Origin: Escherichia phage vB_EcoM_MM02
Reading direction: 5' to 3' (one strand)
Sequence record: MK373784.1
Length of the DNA: 64,000 nt
This document shows positions 42,806-43,634 of this stretch, piece by piece (position 1 is the stretch's first letter; each line of letters starts with the position of its first letter). The translations under genes and the position numbers were made by a program. The notes under the pieces are model-generated. The model was not told where the DNA came from and searched no databases. It worked only from the letters and a program-made list of their open reading frames with translations.

Positions 42806-43116
42806 AAGCCTTGCGGCAACCTTGTCGGGGTTCCACCTGCTAAGGCAAGTGTTTGTACGAAACGCCGGGATTCGAACCCGGTTATTAAGCAGTTGACGCT
42901 ACTCAATATTTTTAAAAGGCCATATCTCGACCATATCCGAACGTTCCGTCAAAAACGCTACTCGGCTTACGGCAAAGATATTTCCTCGAATCGATAATTC
43001 GGTGCGCCGTTTCTGCTGTGATGTAAGGGGATATTAACAAATCGTAAAGATTTATTAAGACCAGTCCTTACTCAGGGAACATCAGTCCGACGACTTGCCG
43101 GTAGCGACCCGGCTTC

Positions 43117-43463
43117 TTATTTTGGCATATCATCAATTTGCTCTCGACGCCGACGCCATAGATTAATCGCTTCATTAACACATTCAGCATTTGGTATATG
43201 ACGACAATAGTATAGTGATTCGCGTTTCTGGAACCGATGTTGTAATGGAATTTCGTTTAAAAGGTCTTTACGGTCAAAGTATTCAAAACTAGTTAACCCT
43301 GAACGGTTTTTAAGAAACTTCCAATGGCCAAATTCATTTTGGAAATAAACGTAATCAGCGTGTTGATATAACGAATTAATCAACCGGTCGGAAATAACTG
43401 TTTCACGTTCGTTAAAATAAAACGTTAAGTCATGAACTACCAGATAAATATTGCCTTTCATAT
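43117..43463 (-). CDS. Hypothetical protein adjacent to tRNA genes
   Basis: Likely start MKGNIYLVVHDL with GAGGA SD 17 nt after tRNA-Arg; the track ORF's upstream extension runs into the tRNA. Confidence 0.4.
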
Positions 43464-43479
43464 TTTCCTCACTTAAAGT

Positions 43480-43556
43480 TGGTCGAGACAGAAGGATTCT
43501 AACCTTCAACCTACGGATTAGAAGTCCGTTGCTCTATACAATTGAGCTATGCCTCG
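43480..43556 (-). tRNA. tRNA-Arg (anticodon TCT), CCA encoded
   Basis: Hand-folded cloverleaf: acceptor CGAGGCA/TGTCTCG, D stem GCTC/GAGC, anticodon stem ACGGA/TCCGT with loop CTTCTAA, T stem GAAGG/CCTTC with loop TTAGAAT, 3' ACCA. Confidence 0.75.
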
Positions 43557-43559
43557 GAT

Positions 43560-43634
43560 TGGTGACCCTGGCTGGTTTCGATCCAGCTACCTATCAGTTA
43601 TGAGCTGACAGCTCTCCCATTGAGCTACAGGGCC
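43560..43634 (-). tRNA. tRNA with CAT anticodon (Ile2 or Met type), CCA encoded
   Basis: Hand-folded cloverleaf: acceptor GGCCCTG/CAGGGTC, D stem GCTC/GAGC, anticodon loop CTCATAA, T stem GCTGG/CCAGC, 3' ACCA. Confidence 0.7.

Follow-up and report, generated by a model that had tools for sequence, protein, structure and literature searches.

Bacteriophage T4 possesses two small stable RNAs, rnaC (139 nucleotides, hereafter nt; 'species 1') and rnaD (119 nt; 'species 2'), both of which have been described as being of unknown function (PMC3014915, PMC9697503, PMC12685909). In T4, the two RNAs are cut from a primary transcript of ~1.75 kb shared with eight tRNAs, with termination after the species I gene (PMC2330249), and RNAC was detected by northern blot in T4 infection (PMC9697503). 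The published tRNA counts are eight in T4 and two in RB69 (Nolan et al., 2006; PMC1524935). We analyzed a 64,000-nt stretch of Escherichia phage vB_EcoM_MM02 (sequence record MK373784.1; this whole stretch is designated as the window), in which two adjacent tRNA genes and a third, tRNA-like element had been noticed on the minus strand. In the original prediction, the third element was regarded as either a decayed tRNA gene or a small stable tRNA-like RNA. As detailed below, the locus very probably represents the unit from which a T4-type phage of the RB69-like genus Mosigvirus transcribes its tRNAs and stable RNAs, and the 'remnant' is a part of rnaC, which would fold into a tRNA-shaped four-way junction. 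The region of ~1 kb around the locus was 99.6% identical to Escherichia phage moha and 96-98% identical to other members of Mosigvirus (RB69-like T4-type phages), the genus to which phage ATK47 is assigned.

The 385-nt non-coding stretch between the open reading frame (ORF) ending at 43117 and the ORF starting at 42735 matched 806 phage records with 93-96% identity to T4-type phages, and its alignment with the sequences of T4, RB9, and ATK47, in all of which rnaC is annotated, revealed that it holds both rnaD and rnaC. Synteny with the three phages comprised the tRNA genes, rnaD, rnaC, and a conserved trailer plus terminator. The window and T4 shared the order and strand of the two RNAs, the trailer, the terminator, and the middle-promoter core, and the orthologs were identical at 137 of the 139 positions (rnaC) and 105 of the 121 positions (rnaD). 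The two phages differed in that rnaD adjoins tRNA-Arg with a 1-nt gap in T4, whereas an ORF of 114 amino acids lies between them in the window. The limits proposed originally for the third element, 42858..42948, correspond exactly to nt 47-137 of rnaC; only the 3' two thirds of the molecule had been recognized, and the true limits are 42856..42994. Likewise, the distance to the tRNAs is ~530 nt instead of ~600 nt. Note that the statements on the mature ends rest on the GenBank annotation of T4 (NC_000866 70908..71171). Judged from these alignments, the third element is the ortholog of T4 rnaC, neither a decayed tRNA nor a new RNA: the proposal of a stable tRNA-like RNA stands, albeit for a known molecule, and that of a decayed tRNA is refuted. 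All parts of the finding match known features of T4 or RB69; the two-tRNA set and rnaC/rnaD are already published and annotated in close relatives.

There is no Rfam family for rnaC, and no covariance model of Rfam 15, including those of ROOL, GOLLD, and transfer-messenger RNA (tmRNA), gave a relevant match to it in the scans of the window at the gathering threshold and of 42650..43750 at E<=10. Besides the two tRNAs, the latter scan yielded noise, namely a tRNA-Sec-like match of 16.6 bits (42857..42949; the gathering score is 47), antisense plastid untranslated-region models over a tRNA, YrlA, and isrK. The third element did not match the tRNA model RF00005 even at E<=10, and ARAGORN called neither a tRNA at this element nor a tmRNA anywhere in the window.

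The fold of rnaC was assessed on 34 unique sequences of about ten genera, and pairs were counted on sets of 15 and 23 sequences. The homologs stemmed from Tequatro-, Mosig-, Gapriver-, Karam-, Winkler-, Gelderland-, Kanagawa-, Moon-, and Marfavirus, phage Ursula, and viral and metagenomic contigs. The consensus by RNAalifold was a four-way junction of P1, P2, P3, and P4, of which the last is the T-arm:

42856..42994, minus strand, rnaC homolog
42987..42993, minus strand, 5' strand of P1, CGAUUCG (nt 2-8), pairing with the 3' strand (100% of cells paired)
42856..42864, minus strand, 3' strand of P1, CGUUUCG (nt 131-137; 42858..42864), and the tail UA (42856..42857)
42917..42986, minus strand, P2, a long arm in the place of the D-arm (nt 9-78), with compensatory double changes in 13 of the 15 counted pairs (helices 2-6)
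42947..42952, minus strand, apical hexaloop of P2, UUGACG, first partner of the candidate kissing contact
42883..42908, minus strand, P3, an arm of 9-10 base pairs (bp) in the place of the anticodon arm (nt 87-112), with double changes in six of the nine stem pairs
42893..42898, minus strand, hexaloop of P3, CGUCAA, second partner of the candidate kissing contact
42865..42881, minus strand, P4, the T-arm CCGGG-UUCGAAU-CCCGG (nt 114-130), the middle pair of which covaries (G-C, U-A, A-U, and U.G)

The cells paired in the consensus amounted to 97.6% and 97.9% in the 15- and 23-sequence sets, respectively, against 37-50% in the slid controls. Double changes were observed in 22 pairs, compared with 7.4 and 13.7 in shuffles (none of 500 reached the observed value), and 131 cells of the 23-sequence set were changed on both sides, compared with 38.8 +/- 6.4 after shuffling (again 0/500). 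The apical stem of P2 showed double changes in all five pairs. P1, a 7-bp acceptor-like helix, bears two invariant U.U pairs in the middle of the stem, and its third pair is A-U in the group of T4, RB69, and VR7 (6 sequences) and G-C elsewhere (17 sequences). The experimentally derived ends of T4 rnaC given in the annotation lie 1 nt outside P1 on the 5' side and 2 nt outside on the 3' side, providing an independent fit to a molecule closed by P1.

The T-arm noticed originally (CCGGG-TTCGAAT-CCCGG) is present at 42881..42865. The 7-bp acceptor-like pairing proposed together with it fared differently: CGGAACG (42948..42942) can pair with CGTTTCG (42864..42858), but the pairing is not conserved. 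In this helix (nt 46-53 with nt 131-138), the third pair is broken by a change from G.U to A.C in eight of the 15 homologs, no compensatory change was found, and its 5' strand is instead part of P2, in the apical stem and loop. The minimum free energy structure of the single 139-nt sequence (-50.2 kcal/mol; z-score of -4.55) leaves it unused as well. Altogether, the covariation supports a model in which rnaC is a tRNA-shaped four-way junction closed by its own 5' and 3' ends.

The loops of P2 (UUGACG; 42952..42947) and P3 (CGUCAA; 42898..42893) match each other perfectly as reverse complements, and a 6-nt complementarity between two of three such loops is expected by chance with a probability of ~0.0012. 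Both hexaloops were unchanged in the 34 unique homologs except the Marfavirus clade, while the stems below them vary; in one homolog (L149), the P3 stem has been rewritten and the P3 loop kept. The eight unique sequences of the Marfavirus clade bear UUGGCG and CGCCAA, namely a compensatory change from A-U to G-C. These patterns suggest a kissing contact of the two hexaloops. The covariation-supported structure, together with this candidate contact, makes a 50-year-old orphan RNA directly testable.

Apart from its fold, rnaC shares with tRNA the acceptor/T-arm half and the cloverleaf topology but possesses no D-arm or anticodon arm of the tRNA type and is not recognized by the tRNA covariance model. 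Its usual surroundings are tRNA arrays: in Karam-, Winkler-, and Gelderlandvirus and phage Ursula, rnaC resides between tRNA genes (e.g., tRNA-Trp, rnaC, and tRNA-Gly in this order), and it always starts ~6 nt past a '...CCA' end in those arrays. RNase P is known to accept minihelix-like substrates (reviewed in PMC11143913). The acceptor/T-arm module may make rnaC a substrate of the host tRNA-maturation machinery, in which case the 5' end would be produced by RNase P and the 3' end by trimming exonucleases. Such tRNA-type processing would explain both the excision of rnaC from a polycistronic precursor and its stability. The non-tRNA substrates of RNase P, namely the tRNA-like domain of tmRNA, the 3' tRNA-like structures of plant viruses, and minihelix models, have a coaxial acceptor-like stem and a 5-bp T-stem with a 7-nt loop as rnaC does, and share with it the lack of a tRNA-type D-arm/anticodon arm and the location in a precursor that needs cleavage. 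Unlike these substrates, rnaC matched no Rfam model for tmRNA or tRNA-like structures, has no G3.U70, and bears tandem U.U pairs in its acceptor stem.

As to the role of the mature molecule, we tentatively put forward, as one possibility, a non-decoding tRNA mimic that engages a host or phage factor recognizing tRNA, for example as a decoy in a tRNA-centred conflict of defence and counter-defence. We favour this role, which fits two published observations: phage tRNA loci act as counter-defence (PMC13096335), and a convergent single-nucleotide polymorphism arose in rnaD during the adaptation of a T4-like phage to ECOR34 (PMC12685909), a hint of a host-specific role. A further idea, which we consider rather doubtful, is that rnaC is not merely an idle by-product of the tRNA operon: the hexaloops would pair between molecules, yielding dimers or higher oligomers as a small-scale counterpart of the phi29 pRNA or the ROOL/GOLLD assemblies, and/or rnaC would act as a decoy for a host tRNA-targeting defence nuclease or a tRNA-processing enzyme. 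If true, either version would supply a T4 RNA with the function that it has lacked since the 1970s. A precedent for oligomers is found in ROOL and GOLLD, large RNAs encoded near tRNA islands of phages and prophages and self-assembling through kissing loops (PMC12286853). rnaC resembles them in being phage-encoded, associated with tRNA arrays, of unknown function, and equipped with conserved complementary loops that covary, but it is only 139 nt long and has no relationship to them in sequence or in Rfam. The pRNA of phi29 forms a ring through intermolecular loop-loop contacts; to our knowledge, DNA packaging in T4 needs no RNA.

Several points weigh against a kissing tRNA mimic with a role in trans. 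First, the kissing contact rests on one compensatory event in a single clade plus invariance and is thus suggested, not proven, and loop pairing within a molecule is indistinguishable from that between molecules with these data. Second, an encoded CCA follows P1 in the Marfavirus clade only (tail U-CCA; L017, L024, L049, L123, L145, L168, and L256); the tail is U-ACA in most genera, which makes aminoacylation unlikely. The T-loop of the Winklervirus type is non-canonical, with UGCAUSC (UGCAUCC, UGCAUUC, or UGCAUGC; L004, L025, L009, L015, L016, and L250) in place of the UUCGAAU of most homologs. Thus, full mimicry of the tRNA elbow is not conserved, and a canonical T-loop is not required for the role of rnaC. 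For rnaC, we infer the cleavage by RNase P, the position of the 3' end, and a lack of aminoacylation. There is no tie of rnaC itself to any defence system, and the polymorphism in the ECOR34 adaptation lies in rnaD. Finally, rnaC is missing in IME281 (Dhakavirus), TH41 (Gaprivervirus), and AV114 (Mosigvirus) and is dispensable in those lineages. On laboratory hosts, T4 mutants with deletions in the tRNA region remain viable.

The losses took different forms. IME281 (L007 1494..1640) and TH41 (L008 881..1000) retain rnaD and the trailer/terminator without rnaC, and the 3' end of rnaD is joined straight to the trailer in IME281. As VR7, a member of the same genus as TH41, possesses both rnaC and rnaD, rnaC has been lost sporadically. 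AV114 (L270 351..450) lacks tRNA-Arg, the ORF, rnaD, and most of rnaC; the 3' half of the rnaC T-arm and the tail are left and follow the degenerate 5' part of a tRNA-Asn-like sequence, with GGTTCGAATCC as the exact point of fusion. To judge from the junction, this fusion looks like the product of recombination at the T-loop. The preferred cleavage site of SegB is reported to lie in tRNA-Asn genes (PMC2330249).

These occurrences bear on an alternative that we regard as unlikely but as the best of the rivals, namely that rnaC, rnaD, and the trailer act mainly in cis as a processing/stability module (tRNA-like 'punctuation' and a 3' structure) directing where the polycistronic transcript is cut and protecting the upstream tRNAs and mRNA, with no role in trans. 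Such a module would agree with the position of rnaC, which invariably ends a tRNA precursor or lies within one, with its conserved spacer from the preceding '...CCA' ends and the conserved hairpins and terminator downstream, and with its dispensability in some lineages. Punctuation, however, needs an acceptor/T-arm minihelix alone, yet a 70-nt arm, a 10-bp arm, and two invariant, complementary hexaloops have been kept across about ten genera. Moreover, the excised RNA accumulates stably in T4, and IME281 and TH41 have kept the trailer and terminator in the absence of rnaC.

We find it very improbable that the third element is a decayed tRNA gene left by the loss of a T4-type array in the RB69 lineage. 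The canonical T-arm, the acceptor-like pairing, the clear loss of genes in this locus relative to T4 and RB9, and the tRNA debris produced by the T-loop recombination in AV114 all speak for decay, but the same 139-nt sequence sits beside full tRNA sets in T4 and RB9, is 98.6% identical across genera, adopts a fold other than the tRNA cloverleaf, with 22 compensatory pairs, and is expressed as a stable RNA in T4.

Equally hard to uphold is the reading of the element as a true tRNA of ~94 nt that departs from the norm by an intron or a long extra arm. Besides the weak tRNA-Sec match, its support comes from ARAGORN, which in three homologs predicted a tRNA over the last 94-96 nt of rnaC by using the acceptor pairing of the original prediction, namely Lys(ttt) in G4507 (L268 467..560), Phe(gaa) in KKP_3262 (L269 373..468), and Stop(tta) in L013 980..1073. 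As three different 'anticodons' appeared on one homologous RNA, we regard these calls as artefacts. No such call was made in the window, T4, or F48, the tRNA-Sec score lies far below the gathering score, and RF00005 gave no match. In addition, the acceptor pairing is broken in about half of the counted homologs, and the mature RNA in T4 has 46 more nt on the 5' side. Public phage records repeatedly carry rnaC as tRNA-Lys, tRNA-Phe, tRNA-Stop, or a hypothetical protein. The false tRNA genes inflate the tRNA counts of phages, and a covariance model could fix this problem. Finally, a protein-coding function of the rnaC region is scarcely credible: ORFs of 40-48 amino acids overlap it and coding sequences for hypothetical proteins are annotated over the homologs in F48 (L017 1516..1653), EI (L024 616..753), NM4.3 (L021 542..715), Ursula (L022 566..676), and Kosakonia 305 (L023 704..832), but indels of 1-2 nt in loops and junctions among the homologs would break any frame, the substitutions are paired across stems instead of being codon-periodic, and the strands and frames of the annotated coding sequences differ between phages.

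The occurrence of rnaC outside the annotated phages was surveyed by pattern searches, with nhmmer as the homolog screen for the matches. The pattern TTCGAGGA...TTGRCG...AAAAT retrieved >120 loci in viral contigs, most of them by chance, and few passed nhmmer. The pattern GGTTCGAGGA-N(100-128)-GGCGTTCCGT retrieved 116 loci in metagenome contigs, three of which (L168, L250, and L256) were real homologs, the rest being chance matches from soil and marine samples. A pattern restricted to the 3' end added no new clade in viral contigs. In bacterial genome contigs, at least 120 chance matches were obtained, in unrelated, mostly high-GC bacteria, and none was confirmed by nhmmer among the matches listed, which does not prove the absence of rnaC from bacteria.

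Together with rnaC, the following features would constitute a single minus-strand unit, which is read from a middle promoter through tRNA-Ile(CAU), tRNA-Arg(UCU), a small ORF, rnaD, and rnaC to an intrinsic terminator:

43697..43723, minus strand, T4 middle-promoter-like site directly upstream of the tRNA pair, read from the sequence as TTTGCTTTA, which we take to be a MotA box, 12 nt, and TATTAT
43560..43634, minus strand, tRNA-Ile (lysidine, Ile2 type) with anticodon CAU, found by ARAGORN and Rfam (59.4 bits)
43480..43556, minus strand, tRNA-Arg with anticodon UCU, found by ARAGORN and Rfam (71.1 bits) and aligned with the Arg-UCU tRNAs of other T4-type phages
43117..43461, minus strand, ORF of 114 amino acids, a homolog of RB69ORF150c from the ORF list and the ATK47 annotation (PHROG 3355, unknown function; E=5e-50)
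43001..43120, minus strand, homolog of rnaD, overlooked in the original prediction
42778..42855, minus strand, 3' trailer with hairpins and an intrinsic terminator from the terminator scan (GCCCC...GGGGC UUUUU at 42804..42778)

The two adjacent cloverleaf tRNAs with encoded CCA, predicted to lie 3 nt apart on the minus strand, were confirmed. ARAGORN found two tRNA genes, Arg(tct) and CAT, and no others in the 64-kb window; both matched the Rfam tRNA model over the full length with scores well over the gathering score of 29 bits. No family other than tRNA passed the gathering threshold in the whole window; thus, the ARAGORN and Rfam scans neither added a canonical tRNA nor rejected one of the two. 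Both have a 7-nt anticodon loop with a defined anticodon and an encoded A-CCA. The prediction that the set is trimmed relative to the eight tRNAs of T4 also holds: the homologous region comprises eight tRNAs in T4 and 10 in RB9 by annotation and ARAGORN. The set of Ile(CAU) and Arg(UCU) is common to ATK47, moha, Shf125875, and others, and there is no material difference between the window and the RB69/Mosigvirus complement, which consists of the same two genes. The trimmed set is real and already known.

The CAU tRNA requires a separate consideration of its identity. Its 5' half is identical to T4 tRNA-Ile at 39 of 48 positions, and its body (GGCCCUG...CAGGGUC-A-CCA) has the GGCCC acceptor with C4-G69, C5-G68, and A73, the last three of which we take to be TilS/IleRS determinants of the Ile2 class. 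It clusters with T4 tRNA-Ile and other CAU tRNAs with the GGCCC acceptor and A73, apart from the UGCGG-type Met tRNAs of related phages, and blastn against E. coli matched only genes annotated as tRNA-Ile. This class of CAU tRNA in RB69 has been assigned to lysidine-modified tRNA-Ile (Nolan et al., 2006; PMC1524935). By these sequence criteria, the CAU tRNA is an isoleucine tRNA of the lysidine type, not a methionine tRNA, and should be counted as such when phage tRNA sets are compared with codon usage. Of the codons read by the two tRNAs, AUA makes up 13.8% of the Ile codons and AGA 16.8% of the Arg codons in the ORFs of the window. Both codons are rare in E. coli (AUA, ~7% of Ile codons; AGA, ~4% of Arg codons) and are commoner in the phage ORFs.

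Upstream of the pair, the promoter core TGCTTTAAGAATTAT.TGTTATTATTAA recurs without any difference in front of tRNA-Gln in T4 and RB9, and the middle promoter of the T4 tRNA cluster has been located at the corresponding position (PMC2330249). A late promoter, TATAAATA, was sought as an explanation of the 'late RNA' classification, and none was found in 42-44 kb. The trailer/terminator recurs in T4, RB9, and ATK47, and its conservation extends to two phages devoid of rnaC, IME281 and TH41. The 114-amino-acid ORF sits between tRNA-Arg and rnaD and runs into the latter, the first bases of rnaD overlapping with its stop codon. In T4, the homing endonuclease gene segB lies between tRNA-Ile and tRNA-Arg, and no ORF is inserted at the junction of tRNA-Arg and rnaD.

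The rnaD homolog is separated from rnaC by a 6-nt spacer, as in T4, and the z-score of its minimum free energy is -3.5. The consensus fold consists of a 5' hairpin, RCCGG-GUCGCUA-CCGGY (43113..43097), the closing pair of which covaries, an invariant closing helix, and a variable apical hairpin. The 3' end is CCA in T4, CCG in the window, and CAA, CAG, or CCU in relatives. We rejected the idea that rnaD is tRNA-like or a paralog of rnaC: the 5' hairpin has a 5-bp stem and a 7-nt loop, but there is no acceptor/T-arm arrangement, and the CCA of T4 is not conserved. A plus-strand 'terminator-like' call at 43097..43113 is no terminator: it reflects the conserved 5' hairpin of rnaD read in reverse complement.

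Three minor observations concern the tRNAs. The tRNA-Arg has the D-loop AAUUGUAUA, in which U replaces G19, and the T-loop UUAGAAU, in which A replaces C56. The two replacements co-occur in all five phages with this tRNA-Arg subtype, including the otherwise diverged VR7, and G19 and C56 are kept in the tRNA-Arg of RB9, F48, Melville, and T4; from this distribution, U19-A56 looks like a compensated elbow pair. The T-loop of the CAU tRNA is AUCGAAA in the window, ATK47, and VR7, with A54 and A60 replacing U54 and U60, and the canonical UUCRAAU in T4, RB9, and other phages. In VR7 (NC_014792; locus L019 677..753), ARAGORN detected a tRNA-Arg(tct) that is not annotated in GenBank beside the annotated CAU tRNA, and VR7 of Gaprivervirus thus possesses the same two-tRNA set as the window.

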